Program-made: the position numbers and the translations under genes | DNA from: Octopus vulgaris | Lineage: Eukaryota | Assembly: GCA_951406725.2 (NCBI GenBank) | Contig: OX597814.1 | Span: 50,406,001-50,470,000 of the forward strand | DNA: 64,000 nucleotides | Direction of reading: 5' to 3' | The notes under the pieces: generated by a model | Seen by the model: the letters and a program-made list of their open reading frames with translations, nothing else | What the model was told of the DNA's origin: nothing | Database searches by the model: none | In this document: positions 19,591-61,097 of the stretch, in pieces | Layout: every line of letters begins with the position of its first letter | Position numbering within the stretch: the stretch's first letter is position 1

Positions 19591-19595
<5 letters not shown>

Positions 19596-19772
19596 GAGAT
19601 GAGGAATTATGTACATTATTTACATCATTTACATTTGACGGATATTTGTCATCTTGTTTGTTGTTAACACAACGTTTCGGTTGATATACCACACAGCCTT
19701 CATCAGGTGTCTTGGGGAAATTCCAAACCTGGTTTCTCATTACTAAGGTATTTTTCGAGGTTATTATTATTA

Positions 19773-19838
<66 letters not shown>

Positions 19839-19903
19839 TCACTGCTTGGAATCGAACTCGGAATCTTGGGGTTAGTAGCCCGCGTTCTTAATCACTACGC
19901 CAT
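19591..19903 (-). mobile_element. tRNA-head + (AAT)n + HHR element (inverted left arm)
   Basis: Minus strand: ATGGCGTAGTGATTAAG..GAGTTCGATTCC..GTGACC, then (AAT)n, HHR and tail, ending at (TA)n. Confidence 0.85.
19666..19711 (-). ncRNA. Minimal type I HHR
   Basis: GACAC-CTGATGA-AGGCTG...CAACC-GAAAC-GTT-GTGTT. Confidence 0.8.
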
Positions 19904-20034
19904 TTGAGTTCGATTCCAAGCAGTGACCTGAATAATAATAATAATAATAATAATAAGATCATGGAGATCCACACTAACTAATAATAATAATAATAATAAG
20001 ATCATGGAGAACCACACTAATAATAATAATAATA

Positions 20035-21989
20035 AGATCATGGAGAACCACACTAACTCTGAACAGTGACAATGAATCCCTAAATGCTGGTGATGTAAAA
20101 ATTTCGTGTGGCATTTTCCAGGGTGACTCACTGTCACCACTCCTCTTTTGTTTATCCTTAATACCTCTCTCAAAGCTGCTCAATGACGCGCAGTACGGGT
20201 ATAAAATGTTTGATAAAAATATAAATCATCTCAGTTACATGGATGATTTAAAGCTTTATGCAAAAAATGACCAACAACTCAAGGGCTTACTAGCGATAGT
20301 CAAACAATTCAGTGACGACGTCAGAATGCAATTCGGCCTCGATAAATGTGCAAAGGCTACCTTTATCAAAGGAAAAATGACAGAAACATCTAACGTTAAC
20401 CTTGACCAGCAGAATGTCACAAAAGAACTAGACCCAGCGGAGAGCTACAAGTACCTAGGGGTAATTGAAGGGAACGGAATAAGGCATTCAGAGATGAAGG
20501 AAAGGATCAGGAGAGAATGCTATCGAAGAGTGAGAGCAATACTCAAGACAGAGCTGAATGCAAGAAACAGGATCGAAGCGATCAATGCATTAGCCATACC
20601 AGTCGTGACTTACAGTTTCAATATTGTTAACTGGTCAATTACTGAAATATGTCAGCTCGACAGAAAAATAAGGAAACTGTTGACAATGCATAGAATGCAC
20701 CACCCTAAGGCAGATACAGAACGACTCTATCTGCCAAGAAAAGAGGGAGGCCGTGGTCTTTTACAACTGGCAATAACAATGAAGATCGCTACAATTGGCC
20801 TAGACACCTACCTGAAAAACTCTGAGGACTGGATGTTAAAACTTGTCTCAAAACATGAAAACAAAAAAGCATCATACTCAGTCACAAAACAGGCAAAGGA
20901 ATATCTAAGTGAATTCCGAATACAACCAATTTCGGAATTAGAGATAGACATACAAGAAACAAGCACAGAAAAAGCTAGGCGCATGAAAACCCGTGCCAAA
21001 ACTGCGGCCTTAGATATTCTGAATAATAAATGACAAGAAAAACCTCTCTATGGCAAATGCCCAAAGAGAGCGAATAATGCAGATATCGACAAAGCCCTGA
21101 CCCATCAATGGCTAATGGCCTCTGGCTTAAAATCTGAAACAGAAGGGTTTATCATAGCAGCTCAAGATCAATGCCTACCAACAAGAAACTACCAGGCCAA
21201 CATATTAAAGAACGGCAGTAGCCCAACATGTCGTGTATGCCGACAACAAAATGAAACCATTGACCATGTTGTCTCCAAATGCAGTCTTCTAGCGCCTACA
21301 GAGTACCTCAGTAGGCATGATAGAGCTGCACAATATATTGACTGGGTAATTTGCAAAACCCTGGATTTGCCCCATGAAAAAAACTGGTGGGAACACAATC
21401 CACCTCCTGTGCTTGAAAATGACCACATCTCACTCCTCTGGAACTTCACCATTCAAACTGACAGGAAGATAGTTGCAAATAAGCCAGACATTATATTGAA
21501 AGACTTCAGACAAAGAACATGCCTCCTCATTGATATGACTGTCCCAATCGATATAAACGTATCTGTCAAGACCTACCAAAAACTGAGCAAATATAAAGAT
21601 CTTGAAATAGAAATCAGCAAAATGTGGAAGCTGAAGACTAAAACAATACCTGTTGTCATAGGTGCCCTGGGAATGATAGCGAAAGGGACTGATTGCTACC
21701 TAACTCAGATACCAGGAAACCCCAAAATGGCAGAAATTCAAAAGATAGTGCTCATGGGAACTGCTCATATCCTACGCAAAATACTCTCTATGTAATCCCA
21801 AAGTTTAAAACAAACTTTTTTTTATTTTTTATTTTTTTATTTTTTATTTTTATGTATTAGACATTCACTAGTACAACACCAACAAAAAAAAAAAAACCCC
21901 AAATATATGGCACAGAACTTCCAACCTGTTGTCTCTTGAGGTCTCTGGGTGAGACTTGGACAGACATAAAGCAAAAGTCAAACATAGAA
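20035..21989 (+). mobile_element. R4/Dong-type non-LTR retrotransposon, 5'-truncated, well preserved, inserted in (TAA)n
   Basis: Single frame 20035-21795 with one TGA at 21031: GIFQGDSLSP, YMDDLK, YKYLG, GGRGL, CRVC..H..C, RHD, KPDI..D..K..KY. Has a 3' UTR and a (TAA)n tail. Confidence 0.92.
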
Positions 21990-22070
21990 TAATAATAATA
22001 ATAATAATAACAACAACAACAACATCGAAAAATGTCTTAGGAATGAGAACCCAGGTTCGATTTCCCTAAC

Positions 22071-22114
22071 ACACCTGATGAAGGCTGGAGGGTATATCAG
22101 CCGAAACGTTGTGT
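22071..22114 (+). ncRNA. Minimal type I HHR
   Basis: ACAC-CTGATGA-A-GGCTG...CAGCC-GAAAC-GTT-GTGT; palindromic AACGTT stem III. Confidence 0.85.
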
Positions 22115-23625
22115 TAACAACAAAACAAATATCAGTCAAATGTAAATAATGTAAATAATGAATATAAACATAAAATACTAAACCTTATCCACCACGTCAA
22201 TAATACTATTTAGAATTTAGTTGCCAAAATAAACAAATGAACGTGTAATCTGATACCTCTAAACATGCCAAGATAACATGTCTACATTTTCAAATATTCG
22301 TTTGAATAAATTAATACTGCTTCTCGCGAATGTAAAAGTATTTGCATTTTCTTAAAATTGAGTATTCACCAATTATCTGAATCTTCAATTGAGCATTATT
22401 CATTATAATACATAGCTACTGGCTATACGAATACCCTTCTTCCTTATTAAATATTTAGACAAAAATTAACATTAACATTTAACAAATTATGTATAAGTAA
22501 AACAACAGAATATGTTAATTAATTACTCCAAAATTAAGTACCCACCAAACTCGAGCCAAATCGATTGTTAATGTTGCCTCTTGTCGAAATATTTGGATCA
22601 ATACATGGTACAAGATCAAGATAAGTAAACAAAATGTGAACTGCCTATGCCTTGACTTTGTACACAAGACAGAATCCAGAATATACAATATTTACAGCGA
22701 TGCTTTATCTGGGTTTGTGCATACATAATGAGCACTGTTGTATTTAGCTTTCTTACTTGAGCCATATCAAAGTCTATTAACATTATACCACATATATGCG
22801 GTCACATATTCTAGAGCAAATGTCGTATAGGCAGTTTTAAGATACTCTAAAGCAATATTTCAAGAGTAGCCACATACAATAAGCAACCATATTAGCTAAG
22901 TACTTGGTATTGAATATTAAAATTAAATTAGCTGCCATAAATTTTCCTTTGAGACGAGATTAAAAACCGAGAAAATATTTTTAAACAGTAATAATTAATT
23001 GACATTTTATTTCATTACAAAAGCTGAAGGTTTAGAGGTTAAGTTTGTCATTAAAAATTTGTAAAATGCTTCTTTGTGACTGTTTTAAACATATATTCCC
23101 TGGTCATTTTAAGGTTATAAGGTCACCATTTGTTTGAGCAGAATGATATCAGAAGCTATTTAGTTCTTTTCTTTTATTCCTTTTTGTTTTTAAAATAAAA
23201 TGACCTTTCGATTTCAAAATGTAAAATAGCAGTTGAGAGCGAAGGCTTTGTGAAAAACAGCATCAGCTTGAACAAGCAGAATAAAGTTAAGACTAACAGC
23301 TCACGCTATTGATCAGTCTCAATAACATAATTCAATTATTAAACTATAAGCTGACAAATTGAATTGCCTGTCAAATTAATTAGTAAATGATTACTATAAA
23401 TCACAAGTAGGTTGGTAATCTGGAAAGGATGCTAAAATTAGCAACTCAAGAATTCTTAAAGAAAGAGAATTAAATATAAGATAGAATATTTCTGTTGCTT
23501 GATCATTTAGCAAAATTCGCAAACGTCGCGGTCATTTTGTATAGAGAGTGACTCATATAGCCTAACGGGAAGTAACGTCCGTTTTAAATTGTTGTACTAT
23601 ATCGCGCTTAGAAAAAAACAGAAAG

Positions 23626-39448: not shown

Positions 39449-41034
39449 GTGAGTTTTCTTCGGAATCGGAACTGTTCTCCCAAGTGTTTAGATTCGGTTG
39501 GATTTATGAAATCTGTTCGTTTGTTTGTTTATGACTTTGGTTTAATGTACAGAAAAACCATCTGAGACCCTAAAAACCGGTATATATGCTGGAGAGATAA
39601 AAAGCAAAAGAATTATATGTGCGAGTATACACGCACACTCCACAAACCTATACGATAGGCAAAACGAAATATTATTTAATTTATGCATTTACTTGCTGTC
39701 AATCAGACTTCTTTCTTATACAGATTTAGCTGATTTTTTCCTTGTACTTAGCGTGTATGTGCGCGCGCGCGACCGTGTGTGTATGTCATGTCCCCAGTGA
39801 AATTTGAACTGATGCAAGTATTTTACTGTATTTCTCTTTAAACTAGAAAATACGTTGCCATTTTTTTTTCGATGTTAGTTTTTACAAACTTTTCATCATT
39901 TTTATCAAATTTTGAAGAAGTGAAGAAAACTTTAATGACAGAAATATTTCAGCGAAAGATAAATTACTTTTCTCTTTAATTTAACAAGCATGAACATTTT
40001 GATAATGTTACTCTTATTTTCATTTAAACACAGGTCAGTCCTACTCTGGCACGTAAGCAGTCAATTGAATGCCTATAGTCAATCTTGAAATCAGTTGCTC
40101 CATATTTGTATTTTATAAGATAGTCTATGTCCATGACCTTTTCCTGGCTCTCCTAGGCATCAATATTTAACATGTACATCTGTAGATTGGTGGCTTCTGC
40201 CAAAATATATACATATAAATACGGCGGTGAAGATAAATCATGTTCGAAGTGATGAGACTGGAGTTGAGACACGGTAAGGATAACCGAAAGATGGATAGGG
40301 CATTTATTTCCGAGTGAGGAAGATATGTAACTTGTTAGCTCAGAAAAGTAGAGGCCTTCATAGTAAGAATAGAAAGCAGTGAAGTAATAGATATTTCGTG
40401 CAGCCTGCTGGTAATTTAATGCATTGAATAGTCATCTTTGGATCAGTCTATGTTGTTATTGCAATGGTTAGCAGTTTTAGTAACTTCGACGCTTTTAGTA
40501 AGATGTTATTCACAGTTGAAGCGGGTAAGGTACAAGAAGGTTTACTTGATATGTGTGATGAGTGAGATTTTGTGCTGTTAAAAGACACAAGGCTATCATA
40601 TTCCCATTGAATGATTTTTCAAACTCTTTGTTGCTGTAGGTAAAGGAAGAATGGCGTGAGACACACAAGTTCAGTGTGAATACTGTCTGGGCGCAGAGGG
40701 TAAACGATTAAATAATACATCATCTGTATGACAGTGTTAGTTGCCAGAAGTGCAGGTAACTTTATGTTTAATGTGCAGAAGGAAATGTACGAGAAACATT
40801 GCTGAACCACGAGGTACATCATACGCCAAGTTAATTGAATGTCAGTGGTGATGAGCACGTCGGTACACACTGCAATGGTACGGTCTGACAGAAGAGCTTC
40901 AGTGCCTAGTTCAGGACCATGTTGCGCAATTTTTTATTGTATGTTGCTTCTTTTCAGTTGTCTGGCTTCTTATGTTTATGCGTCCAGTGACGTACGAAAA
41001 GTCTCATATTTAAACTGCAACAATCGAGTCCTTT

Positions 41035-41834
41035 ACAGTTCTATATTTAAGAGATGAGCAATTATGTACATTATTTACATTATTTACATTCGACGGATAA
41101 TTGTCCTCATCTTGTTTGTTGTTAACACAACGTTGAAAGGCCTCTCCGAAAAGATACAAAAGATATGCGGCCCATATGACATCATGACAGTATTCAAGAA
41201 TAATACAACACTTTACAAATATCTTCTTCGAGTAAAACCACCAATAGAAGAGAATATGACCAAAGATTGCGTGTACTCCATCCCATGCAGCTGTGGTAGG
41301 TTATACAAAGGCGAAACATGCCACCCACTCAAAATAAGGGTAAACGAACAATGCAAAGCGAGGAGATATTGATAAACCGGGTATAGCTGATCATGTATGT
41401 AAAAATGGAGACCACCTCCCCCTGAGGAATGAAGTTAAAATAATAGACAGAGAACAACACTGGAAAATACGAAAACTAAAAGAAGCAGTACATATGCTAG
41501 GACACAACAACCTTCTAAGCAGACCGAGTGCAGATATGAGCAGCATATGGGAACCGGTGTTAAGGAAGGATAGGAGATTATTAGATTTATAAGCCTTACA
41601 ATTCACACCATAATTGCCCATGGGCATATGGTGTAGTGGTTAAGAGCGCGGGCTACTAACCCCAAGATTCCGAGTGCGATTCCAAGCAGTGACCTGAACA
41701 ATAGTAAGAACAACAACAACAATAACATCGAAAAATACCTTAGGAATGAGAACCCAGGTTCGAAATTTCCCCAAGACACCTGAAGGCTGGAGGGTTAACA
41801 ACAAACAAGATGAGGACAAATATTTATGTAAATA
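41035..41834 (+). mobile_element. 5'-truncated Penelope/Poseidon-type PLE: inverted tail, GIY-YIG ORF, tRNA-like module, deleted HHR
   Basis: CVYSIPCSCGRLYKGET...IADH...VKIIDREQHWKIRKLKEA, stop at 41590-41592; TSD AATCGAGTCCTTT at 41022 and 41835. Confidence 0.9.
41622..41695 (+). promoter_or_regulatory. tRNA-derived sequence (Pol III A/B boxes), not a functional tRNA
   Basis: A box TGGTGTAGTGG, loop GGG-CTACTAA-CCC, B box GAGT(G/T)CGATTC; acceptor and T stems are mismatched. Confidence 0.8.
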
Positions 41835-42858
41835 AATCGAGTCCTTTGGTATAGATTAGTATAGTATAAATTTGTATAGTATAGTACAATTTGTAGTAAA
41901 CTTGTATTTAGCTATGTTATCAAAATCAAAGCTTTCTTTTGTTGCTATAATGTTAGCTAATTGATGTTATATACAGTTTATAGAGTCTGATTTTTAGTAG
42001 TGGGATGGAGATAGTGTTTCGAGGCGTTCAAATACAATGGTGATACAATTTGGAAGAAATAACTCCACCTGACAGTTCAATTATTGTTGTGGTGTCTGTG
42101 TGTGCCGGAAGTTTAAATGTATTACATGACATTGATCACAGAATGAGAATAACCACAGAGAGGTGTATTTTCCGAGTTGTAAGCTCATCATGGTCGAAAC
42201 AAGCAGTCATGCCAGATAATGCATCTATAAGAATTAATGTTTTGCATAACTTATTGCAGCAGTCATTCTTTATTCAATAGAACCAAACTAGTTGAATAAA
42301 AGTGTTTTGTGTTTGTAAGAACAAATGCATTTATACTGTTGTATTTCTTATTTCTAACCATATTTCACCTCATCTGACATTGAAAGCAGAAGTTATAAAA
42401 ACTCAAAAATAAAAACTTAAGAATGCCACCCACACTATATTTTTATGTATTTATCACTTTATACCGATGTCATCATTCACACAGATGCAATAAACCTCAG
42501 AAAATTTGATTTCCTTGTGGGTTCTCGTAGTTTTAGTCATTCCATTTAAATAAATCTCGATTGCAAGCTGGAACCATTCCATCTAGATTACAACATCTAT
42601 TGCTTTGAATGACACGATTTTCCTCTTCCTCTCTTCGATGAATGATACGTTGGGTTACGGCAATCAGTTCTGTTGATCCATTTATATTAAAGGGGTTCCC
42701 ATTGTCTCCATAATTTCTATAGAAATCAGTGAACTGTACTCTTTTACCGCCCTAGATTAGTGTTTAAATATATGTGTGTATGTATAAGCGTGCGTGTGTG
42801 TGTATACGTATGTATGTATATGTGTGTGTTTATATGTAAGTGTGTGTGCGTGTTTGCT

Positions 42859-47170: not shown

Positions 47171-47734
47171 TCCTGATAAGCAAGTGGTCATATTATTTTG
47201 CTCACTTTCTTTTTCATAGAAATTGACCCTCGTCAGCGTGTGTATAGATCATGCGCGCAGACACGTGTGGGTACATACATACATACATTCATACATACAT
47301 ACATGTATACATACATACATACATGTATACATACATACATATGTGACTGTGTGCGCGCGTGTAAACGCGTGTCTGTGTGTGCGTGTGTGTGTGTGTACAC
47401 TGATGAATTCGAAGGTTTCGTTTATTTACGAGTTGATTTCTTAATTTCATCAGAGTATAAACACTAATGATACTTAAAATAATGATGATACTTAAAAAAA
47501 AGCAAAATTCAGTTCAATTAAAAAGCATGGGTAAGCAACGCATTGTAAGCTATACTATAATTTGCGAAAAAATGTATCTGCGCGCAGGGTATGCATCGTC
47601 CCTCCGATGCCTTTTTTTTCCATTTATTTATGTTTCTCATTTTGCTTTCAGTATGTGTGTGTCTTGCGTGTGTAAATATGAGTTCATGTATTATACCGTT
47701 TGTATTTATGTCTTTTTTCATCTTATTCTGTCTT

Positions 47735-48340
47735 TAAGTCATCAGGTTACGTAGTGGAGTGTTATTATTCCATTCATGATTTCTGTTGAGGTCCGGTCTG
47801 TCTATTATGTTGTGTGTGGCTTCTGTAATTTGACTAAGTGTCGTGACTGTTCTACGTTTTGATAATATTTTAACATCTATGTTATTAAGCGGGCCTCCAT
47901 GTTCTAATTGAGCTTTTCTCCTCCTTGAGTTCCTGCCATTTTCATCTACCCGTTCACCTATACTAGGTGCTGTCTCCCCAATGTATGTCGTTGTCCTGTT
48001 TCTGCACTGTCCCTCAGTGTGCCTTATACTATAGACCACTCAGTAGTTTATAGTATAAAATACGGACATAAAACATAAATTTCGTTCCTGGAATTTATGT
48101 AGTCATTGAAGGCTCACAAGTTCTTTAACAGAAATAGTTTTCCAAGAGAAATATTGAGCATCTTTTTGACCCATTAATACAGTTTGGTTTGGATGTTGTA
48201 GTTAATCCCTTCATTAAAGTTGAAAGGTTAGTTGAATGTCTCTTATTACAGTACCTAAAAGTCGAAGAATGGTCGTTATTTCTAGCATTAAATTTTCCTC
48301 TCACTCCTCCGATATAACGCTTGGTTTCTGTTCGACTATT
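47735..48340 (-). mobile_element. Degraded PLE GIY-YIG fragment
   Basis: VYSI..C..TYIGET..RVDE..VKILS..ITEA..IDRPDLN. Confidence 0.8.
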
Positions 48341-50559
48341 GCCATAGTTCTCTGATACCTGTGCTTCATAAACAACGGTGGATATATCGCATTTCTGCTT
48401 TAGAGGACATTTAGATTTGTCTCTACATGAGCATCCAGGGCAGGCTTGAACTTATAAAGGTCTGTACGAATAGCTGCTGAACAGAAACCAACATAATACC
48501 CTTTCCCTCTATCATATTTTCCATTTTTTAAAAATATTTATTCAGCCTTATTTATACGTTGGTTCTAAAGGTATTCAATGCACACCGTTCAACGTTCCGA
48601 ATTCCAGACTTTCCACGCTGCTTGATAGTTATCAATCCTCCAAACCAGCAATATGTACTAGTAGTATACTGGCGTTGATTTCAGCGATTACACTTCAAAA
48701 TATGTCATCTTTCCATTCGAAAAAAAAATCAATGTATTTATTTAATAACTAGTGTTTCAATTTCAACTTTTCAACTAAAGTTTCTCATTAATTGCGTTCA
48801 ATTAAATACAAATTACCGAATAAATTGTCCTGTAGTTACAATGTATTAAATACTTCCTATTAATCTACTTTCACTGGGAATAGTTTCTTTAAGAGCGTCT
48901 GAAACAAAAACATATAATTAACTATTAAGTAACCTGCCATGCATGAGTTAGACTAATTGGTTGAGAAATTTGAACTATTATGATTTTTGTAAAACAATAA
49001 ACCTTTTCGCTTTTAATGTTCTTTCAATGGCTTAGTTACTAAGCTAATTTGACCAACTGCTGTTTTTAGCTATTATTACAATTGCAAAACAGCTTCAAAC
49101 CTATTTCTTGCGTTCGTTATTTGTTTAATGATATAATAATCATTTAACAGAAACAAAGTCGTCTGCCAAGGCGAAAAAACAATATTTTTGAAATGAAGCT
49201 CGATAACTTCATTCACTTCACCTAGAGACAGAACATATGACGAATATAATTGCTGCAATCTCGGTCTTCTCATAAATGTCACATGAACGATTTTCTGATG
49301 ATTTGAACTGTAAGCAACATATTATATGTATGTGAATATTATGCCTAAAATACAGTGGTTCTCACAACTATTTTCACTTATTGAAGGATACAAACAATTG
49401 AGTGTATATAATTCCTTATATGCACACACCTTTCGAACTTCCATTTTCCACTTGTACCTATATGGATACTAAATGTATCATGTTTAACCAAAGCCTAAGA
49501 AGAATAAAACTGTCTAGCATTAGTAACATTTGTTATTACCGATGAAAATAACAAACAGTAAAAGACGCGGAGAAACTCAAAAATAGAAAATATGGATAGA
49601 ATTGAATTACCTCAGCCACAAGCACTGAAAGTGCGGATAGAAAGTACTTTTGAATTTATGATATTAAGTAATAAAAATATAATCTAAAGAATTAATCTAG
49701 AGGGTTGCCTTGGAGTAGAAACTAGCAGAGTTTACAAGAAAATTTATTCAATAAGATTAACCATTAGATTCAACCTTCATATTAAATTAACGAAATTAAT
49801 GTTCAGAAATAGCAACAAAACTTGAATAAAGAACTTCACCTGAATGGCGGAAAATTATGGATATTTTCAGAAGCATAAATTAATAAAAGGAGATTCAAAT
49901 ATACATTAGTTCTTATCTCTTTCAGAAAATTACAAGAATTAATAGGAACAGTTATCCAAAATAGATCGATTTTAAATTAATGTTTTATCATTTCACTGTG
50001 CAATTCTCGTTAATGTATATTAATGTCTTACCTATGTAATTTGGGTGCAAGACTTTAATTTGTGCCCGTATTAGTGTTCAATCTGTTGTAAATATTTGAG
50101 CCATGATTCTGGGGTTTTTTTTGTTGGGGTATAACTTCTTCCCTTCTTTTCCGGATGAAAGAAAAGGCAAAGCACACAGATAATGGTCGTTGACCTTTCC
50201 ACTTGCAATAATCCATAAAATATATTACAATTTTAAAACATACAATTAGTAAATAATAATCAACTGATGCATTTTCGAATGTTTCAACTTACACTACTAT
50301 TAATTACTTTCTGTGGAAACTTTATACTTTACAATCACCATGGATTTTCTTTATTTACATATGTTACTATAAAGAACAGACTAATCGATATTTCTTTACC
50401 AAAACCTACACAATTTCCATTCAATTCACGTTCTGAATGAATAAGCAAAACTATAAATGGGGAAACAATGTATCTGATATTTCCTCGTTTCGAACTTTGA
50501 TAATTTAGGCGCAGATGCGACAGTTGGCGCATCGTGTCTATAGATGCAGACGTGGATGC

Positions 50560-60775: not shown

Positions 60776-61097
60776 GGTGAAGGCACGGGGCTTAGTGGTT
60801 AGGGTATTCGGATCAGGATCATAAGGTCGTAAGTTCAATTCCTGGTGATGCATCGTGTCCTTGAGCAAGACACTTAATTTCACGTTGCACCAGTCGATTC
60901 AGCTGGTAAAATGAGTAGTATCTGCTTTTCAAAGGTCCGGTCTTTTCACATTCTGCGTTAAATCTCCCTGAGAACTACGTTAAGGATACACATGTCTGTG
61001 GAGTGCTCAACCACTTGCATGTTAATTTCGCGAACAGACTATTCCGTTGATCGGATCAGCAAAAACCCTCGTCGCTGTAACCGACGGAGTGCCAGCA
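60776..61097 (+). mobile_element. tRNA-derived SINE, family C
   Basis: GGCTTAGTGGTTAGG A box, AGTTCAATTCC B box, GTGTCCTTGAGCAAGACACTT central domain. Confidence 0.8.

Follow-up and report, generated by a model that had tools for sequence, protein, structure and literature searches.

Penelope-like elements (PLEs) of the Penelope/Poseidon type are the closest described relatives of the octopus family presented here. In the accessible parts of the sources, PAc of Anolis (PMC11167929) and Pen2a of Adineta (PMC3846280) each encode a reverse transcriptase (RT) alongside a C-terminal GIY-YIG endonuclease (EN) in one open reading frame (ORF) of about 840 amino acids. Both have a hammerhead that overlaps the start of the ORF, as is stated directly for PAc (PMC11167929), together with an inverted truncated pLTR, an optional tail of 30-40 nt and partial tandems. 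The promoter of Penelope/Poseidon PLEs is given, in the portions of this literature that were available, as TATA/Inr-like or as "likely in the pLTR", and those portions mention no tRNA head.

Pol III promoters have been placed only in short non-coding retroposons in the literature surveyed, as far as its accessible text goes. Sm-alpha and Sj-alpha of Schistosoma are short repeated elements in which a Pol III promoter is followed by a hammerhead, but they are non-coding, and the available sections describe no autonomous element with the same promoter (PMC6765202). The TRIMp3 elements Cassandra, Helenus and Ajax carry a tRNA- or 5S-derived Pol III promoter within their terminal repeat; they are, however, non-autonomous LTR elements of less than 1.3 kb, and their autonomous partners must use Pol II according to the part of the source at hand (PMC10886601). 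In the octopus family the coding element itself bears the head, and it is a PLE with pLTRs in place of the non-coding body and two LTRs with PBS and PPT that characterize TRIMp3. Metazoan retrozymes are likewise short non-coding repeats with type I hammerheads, but they consist of tandem, circle-forming units, and the text available to us leaves a tRNA promoter, SINEs and Pol III unmentioned (PMC7229834).

The analysis began from a window of 64,000 nt of Octopus vulgaris DNA (contig OX597814.1), meaning the whole stretch that was read. Table 1 lists the relevant features. The focal insertion is a PLE copy, probably of the Penelope/Poseidon type, that is dead and truncated at its 5' end. A first-pass annotation had described it as one insertion bounded by a 13-bp TSD, and the two flanks do form an exact pair: the word AATCGAGTCCTTT occurs at 41022-41034 and 41835-41847 and at no other place in the whole window. 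The inverted copy of the element's own tail, also claimed, is present in a layout like that of PLEs in the accessible parts of PMC8557442 and PMC3846280. The GIY-YIG ORF ends at 41592 as annotated (stop codon 41590-41592), but of the 838 codons of the family ORF only the final ~150 survive, and these are thrown out of frame where 8 nt are missing after 41358; Pfam returned no match for the two focal ORF pieces. The tRNA-like sequence reported beyond the ORF was borne out. This head begins 29 nt past the GIY-YIG stop, and when compared with one tRNA type, the genome's own tRNA-Arg(ACG), it reaches an alignment score of 63 that none of 1000 shuffles attained (maximum 40.5). In the focal copy the A box has one change and the B box is mutated (GTGCGATTC versus consensus GTTCGATTC). 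ARAGORN reported 0 genes in the window and left the head unscored, and neither tRNA nor hammerhead was among the Rfam matches listed for the window, for locus L013 and for 311 nt of L036. The AAC/AAT repeat and the internally deleted hammerhead are both there, the latter lacking 3 nt of its core and a further 21 nt comprising the 3' strand of stem II, GAAA and the cut site. The spacer region 41726-41780 contains GGTTCGAAAT, another word that resembles a B box.

Table 1. Positions of the PLE-related features in the window
Feature	Position	Strand	Remarks
Short arm without ORF (head, AAT, predicted hammerhead, tail)	19592-19906	-	Same family as focal copy
Second arm of the head-to-head pair, AAT repeat interrupted by a LINE	19906-22167	+	
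Left TSD, 13 bp	41022-41034	+	Exact match to 41835-41847
Inverted 5'-truncated pLTR end with extra 30-40-nt PLE "tail"	41035-41134	-	
3' fragment of PLE ORF (linker and GIY-YIG endonuclease), frameshifted	41135-41592	+	RT (YVDD) joined in other copies
3' UTR spacer	41593-41621	+	Final 7 nt and head start make up the snap-back axis
tRNA-Arg(ACG)-derived head, without acceptor stem	41622-41692	+	A box 41629-41639, B box 41674-41682
AAC/AAT microsatellite	41697-41725	+	Length varies between copies
Conserved spacer with predicted ORF start codon 41746-41748	41726-41774	+	Family consensus: frame open through hammerhead and tail
Remnant of predicted minimal type I hammerhead that has lost core and cut site	41775-41798	+	Intact form at window 22060-22112
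pLTR tail	41794-41834	+	End is the first of two family 3'-end zones
Right TSD	41835-41847	+	Exact match to 41022-41034

The annotation had also argued that the same order of units recurs at 19.6-22.2 kb and is hence a family trait. The recurrence is real, but this locus alone does not tie the head to the ORF because it is a head-to-head pair of ORF-less arms; that link is supplied by a genome survey. Its second arm contains a 5'-truncated LINE at about 19957-21990, which we take from its motifs to be Dong/R4-like. The AAT repeat of the pLTR has been struck repeatedly by insertions of such LINEs (window 19957-21990 and loci L021, L035, L058 and L241), and the PLE therefore seeds targets for another retrotransposon.

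The family was characterized in a genome of 2.8 Gb in 227 contigs. An EN fragment gave 2875 first-look candidates genome-wide, 40 of which were scored, and a consensus was built by walking upstream from EN through RT to the N-terminus. It comprises a single open frame of 789 codons, or of 838 when read from an ATG in the pLTR via the hammerhead and tail, and encodes an RT (Pfam RVT_1, E=2e-10) with a C-terminal GIY-YIG endonuclease. Homologues have one common domain set, and a PDB search produced weak RT matches only. An 847-aa relative (P0001) is 57% identical and its N-terminus reads through likewise. The consensus matches an "uncharacterized" Anolis protein (P0014), which we infer to be PAc, with 37.6% identity over 793 aa and 482 bits, and the local Neptune-like ORF with 33 bits, both being pairwise scores. 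The unit opens with the head and (AAT)n, followed by the ATG, the minimal hammerhead and the tail, then by the RT-EN ORF and another head. The hallmarks of PLEs are present as pLTRs that derive from partial tandems, an inverted 5' copy and a one-sided tail. By these membership features the element is an EN+ PLE, probably of the Penelope/Poseidon type. The minimal type I hammerhead of the pLTR is a prediction made by eye against the accessible part of PMC4209133, with CUGANGA, an unpaired base, a stem II of 5-6 bp, GAAA, a palindromic ACGU and a stem I of 5 bp in the consensus.

Identity to the consensus is 85-95% for individual copies. The 30 protein matches that were fetched all come from the same family, at 85-95% identity, and no intact copy was found among them. 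TSDs of 7-14 nt flank 12 of 27 copies. An 800-kb sample of unselected DNA contains eleven loci, which extrapolate to about 38,500 loci genome-wide, with a 95% range of 19,000-69,000 that is wide because the random sample comprises 800 kb only.

That the head belongs to the coding element follows from a survey of 97 ORF-selected loci, reduced by 9 duplicates and by 15 without the EN 3' end to 73 copies. The head lies 3' of the ORF end in 69 of the 73; two of the remaining four retain pieces of it and two have lost it by deletion. Heads are also found 5' of the ORF, inside 5' pLTRs. Contigs from the organisms labelled E and F span the ORF-head junction; for those labelled B and D no listed piece spans it, and depth is continuous. 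The head has no TSD of its own, and throughout 864 kb of unselected DNA all strong head matches adjoin either the AAT-hammerhead tail or an inverted arm. Since the genome is dense in SINE-like repeats, a SINE nested by chance in the focal copy alone could be imagined, but this reading is refuted by a junction common to 69/73 ORF copies and spanned by contigs of two other organism labels, in agreement with the first-pass annotation.

The family is dominated by short copies, which relate closely to the ORF-bearing ones. The 71-nt head consensus is identical between 69 long and 37 short copies. When 66 long copies are set against 26 short ones, the 186-nt tail has no fixed difference either, nor is there any over the 257 nt in all. 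The two groups are of equal age (5-6.5% non-CpG divergence), and both end in two 3' zones about 35 nt apart, as do the reverse-transcription starts of PAc in the available text of PMC11167929. This divergence is near that of the O. vulgaris SINE/LINE burst at JC 0.065 reported in PMC13282606, in the accessible part of which no mention of hammerheads was found. Because consensus and age are common to short and ORF-bearing copies, the short form appears to be the element's own pLTR rather than a distinct SINE lineage; its copies are best read as a product of that pLTR. In common with SINEs they have a tRNA-derived head with A and B boxes. They show neither a separate lineage sharing only the tail nor a LINE-type tail and insertion footprint, and have instead the PLE tail, hammerhead and inverted arms.

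It would be quite improbable, by comparison, for the short form to be a tRNA SINE lineage that was independent, had master genes of its own, borrowed PLE enzymes and was later taken up as a pLTR through template switching. Such a history would suit the dominance of short copies, since 9 of the 11 loci in the 800-kb sample have no ORF side and 2 have one. It would also suit a PLE leader that resembles a fold-back scar (P=0.04 with the 5-bp core) and two tail positions, both at one CpG, whose frequency differs between long and short copies (p<0.01). Yet a separate lineage sits poorly with equal age and 257 nt free of fixed diagnostic differences, and the tail of the short copies encodes the N-terminus of the PLE ORF in frame. 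The DNA examined yielded neither a head-less sister PLE nor another SINE with the same head, and beyond the core the scar loses its significance (P=0.13). A fossil fold-back origin of the PLE leader was rejected for this last reason. The annotation's proposal of a PLE that captured a tRNA promoter into its pLTR as a PLE-SINE hybrid is supported with two refinements: the capture is upheld by the 69/73 linkage and the A and B boxes, whereas Pol III activity is a matter of inference, and the short copies appear to be the element's own pLTR and no independent SINE family.

The 5' ends of copies point to a candidate start site. Among copies reaching the start of the head, 52 of 56 stop there and do not run into the ORF. 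In the head-selected set of 29, the 5' end falls within -24..+6 of the head in 27 copies, and the other 2 enter the ORF. The tail-selected set of 58 comprises 25 copies with an end at -24..+6, 2 that run on, 13 that start within the head and 18 whose head could not be scored. At the rate of truncation seen inside the ORF, one per 281 nt (28 copies), about 10% would be expected in an interval of that size. Loose contig ends cluster at +2 and -7 in 4/4 runs of four other organism labels. Because 52 of 56 copies stop at the head start, it is likely the RNA 5' end, and the 3' UTR spacer at 41593-41621 is likely the start-site zone. We put at about 70% the probability that the tRNA-Arg-derived A/B-box head acts as the internal Pol III promoter of the element.

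The head could also be a passive passenger in an element transcribed by Pol II or by read-through, in which case the pile-up of 5' ends would arise from cDNA snap-back on a 5-bp GC-rich palindrome. Many short copies are in fact head-to-head pairs with their axis at -7, the mark of cDNA snap-back, and the start zone is one of only 3 GC-rich sites among the 51 such 5-bp snap-back sites in the consensus. A second hot spot with microhomology lies at +17 (7/58 copies), and other PLEs have Pol II-type pLTR promoters in the accessible parts of PMC8557442 and PMC3846280. However, single-arm copies without an inverted arm likewise start at the head, and the GC-rich snap-back site within the ORF was passed by 11 of the 12 copies that reach it, copies which were chosen for length. 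A passenger would also leave unexplained that both boxes of the consensus head match their consensus despite a decayed acceptor stem, and that the sense strand is without TTTT. We judge the passenger reading unlikely, if somewhat less so than the independent SINE. That the 5' end stems from RNase P trimming was rejected, since the acceptor stem is unable to pair and templated leader bases form part of the axis. RNA-seq of organism C (three runs and one contig set, all unstranded) showed no start site at the head and no GT-AG joint among the matches listed; depth rises toward the tail and tracks copy number, and these unstranded data were not used as evidence of expression.

With the head as an internal Pol III promoter, RNA would start 1-10 nt upstream of it. 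If it behaves as PAc does in Anolis, the protein of the PLE would nick DNA and prime reverse transcription at the tail, which lies about 120-165 nt inside the ORF. Where priming takes place at the tail closest to the RNA 5' end, head-to-tail copies of ~250 nt would result, often doubled by snap-back at the cDNA end, and the short copies would therefore be SINE-like products of the element itself. Priming at a downstream tail would give the ORF-bearing copies, which are mostly truncated and include the focal one.

Copies that join a pLTR to the ORF bear on how far such RNA extends. Among 35 of these, 10 extend as far as the head start. Six of the ten have their 5' end there (binomial P 2e-4), and the other 4 run on into an upstream EN, as the passenger reading would allow. 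The script scored 3 + 3 of the ten and 4 were reclassified by eye, so that the six head starts comprise 3 from the script and 3 by eye. One of the six extends 910 nt into the ORF, three have a second pLTR after an internal deletion, and two share an ORF breakpoint and may not be independent. As 6 of 10 start at the head, head-initiated RNA likely enters the ORF, and the 4 that pass the head indicate templates that started further upstream or were circular. Loci L378 and L381 (contig C29) and L380 are internally deleted two-pLTR derivatives that run from the head start, and two of them share a break 166 nt past the tail. Derivatives with this common break are possibly a small non-autonomous subfamily.

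RNA polymerase III normally makes short non-coding RNAs only. The 2,654-nt sense unit contains zero TTTT runs, and the opposite strand 30. The number expected on the sense strand is 2.75 when synonymous codons are shuffled (P 0.031), 2.6 when dinucleotides are (P 0.042), 4.7 when single bases are (P 0.008) and 5.4 when codons are resampled (P 0.002). In the same genome, a Neptune-like PLE that is young and head-less has 15 TTTT in 2,151 nt (11.1 expected). Per kb, decayed copies of the family have 0.44, the Neptune-like PLE 7.0 and several LINE ORFs 1.4-2.7, and some short LINE pieces are also without TTTT. The absence of TTTT is suggestive only, because the strand is A-rich and the comparison is without a Poseidon control. 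Taken with the six of ten junction copies that start at the head, it means that Pol III may transcribe the whole coding element. The element might then be an autonomous coding retrotransposon transcribed by Pol III end to end, in which a tRNA-Arg promoter would give a 2.7-kb uncapped RNA purged of TTTT, an 838-aa RT-endonuclease and tens of thousands of SINE-like short copies, making it its own LINE and SINE in one. We put this larger proposal forward tentatively, with the odds somewhat against it. Two points speak against it: Pol III RNAs are uncapped, and a three-codon frame lies upstream of the main ATG. Should the full-length RNA indeed be made by Pol III, the family would be a natural test case for the translation of uncapped RNA.

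The tRNA-headed coding PLE is real, family-wide and not found in print. By carrying a likely promoter within its own repeat, a coding PLE could lead straight from autonomous element to SINE-like family, with no need for a SINE to arise separately. PLE promoters have been little studied, and the head supplies a precisely mapped candidate start site. The annotators did not recognize the design as standard, and we concur insofar as no tRNA-headed PLE was found in the accessible parts of the literature searched, including PMC3531059, PMC9223172, PMC8967140 and PMC6962438; one may be recorded in Repbase or Dfam, in subscription journals or in supplements such as the repeat library of PMC13282606. 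Neither tRNA nor Pol III was found mentioned in the available text of PMC13343379.

PLE ends may account for some of the repeats that are annotated as octopus SINEs. The tRNA-derived octopus SINEs OK, OR1 and OR2 have heads of tRNA-Arg origin. Reportedly described by Ohshima and Okada in 1994, they resemble the short form by description in having a tRNA-derived head, a high copy number and, probably, a host from the same group. One of these three names may already cover the short form, the likeness being one of description and not of sequence. OR2 is listed as a CORE SINE in the portion of PMC4758252 at hand, and no published link between OK, OR1 or OR2 and PLEs was found in the accessible text of the literature searched.

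Several other repeats were observed. Loci L317-L336 belong to a very young Neptune-like PLE family with copies 96-99.8% alike and an open frame of up to 717 aa; it has a T-rich 3' UTR and its own hammerhead-like motif, is without a tRNA head and often ends at (TA)n. Decayed Neptune-like GIY-YIG fragments from two PLE insertions occupy window positions 47734-48451 (minus strand). At least three further tRNA-like SINE families with unrelated bodies are represented by L113, L126, L134, L142 and L352 and by window positions 60783-60848. Finally, more than 20 sites matching tRNA-Arg(ACG) are clustered at G000:C2:211887742-211907142, many of them about 206 nt apart.
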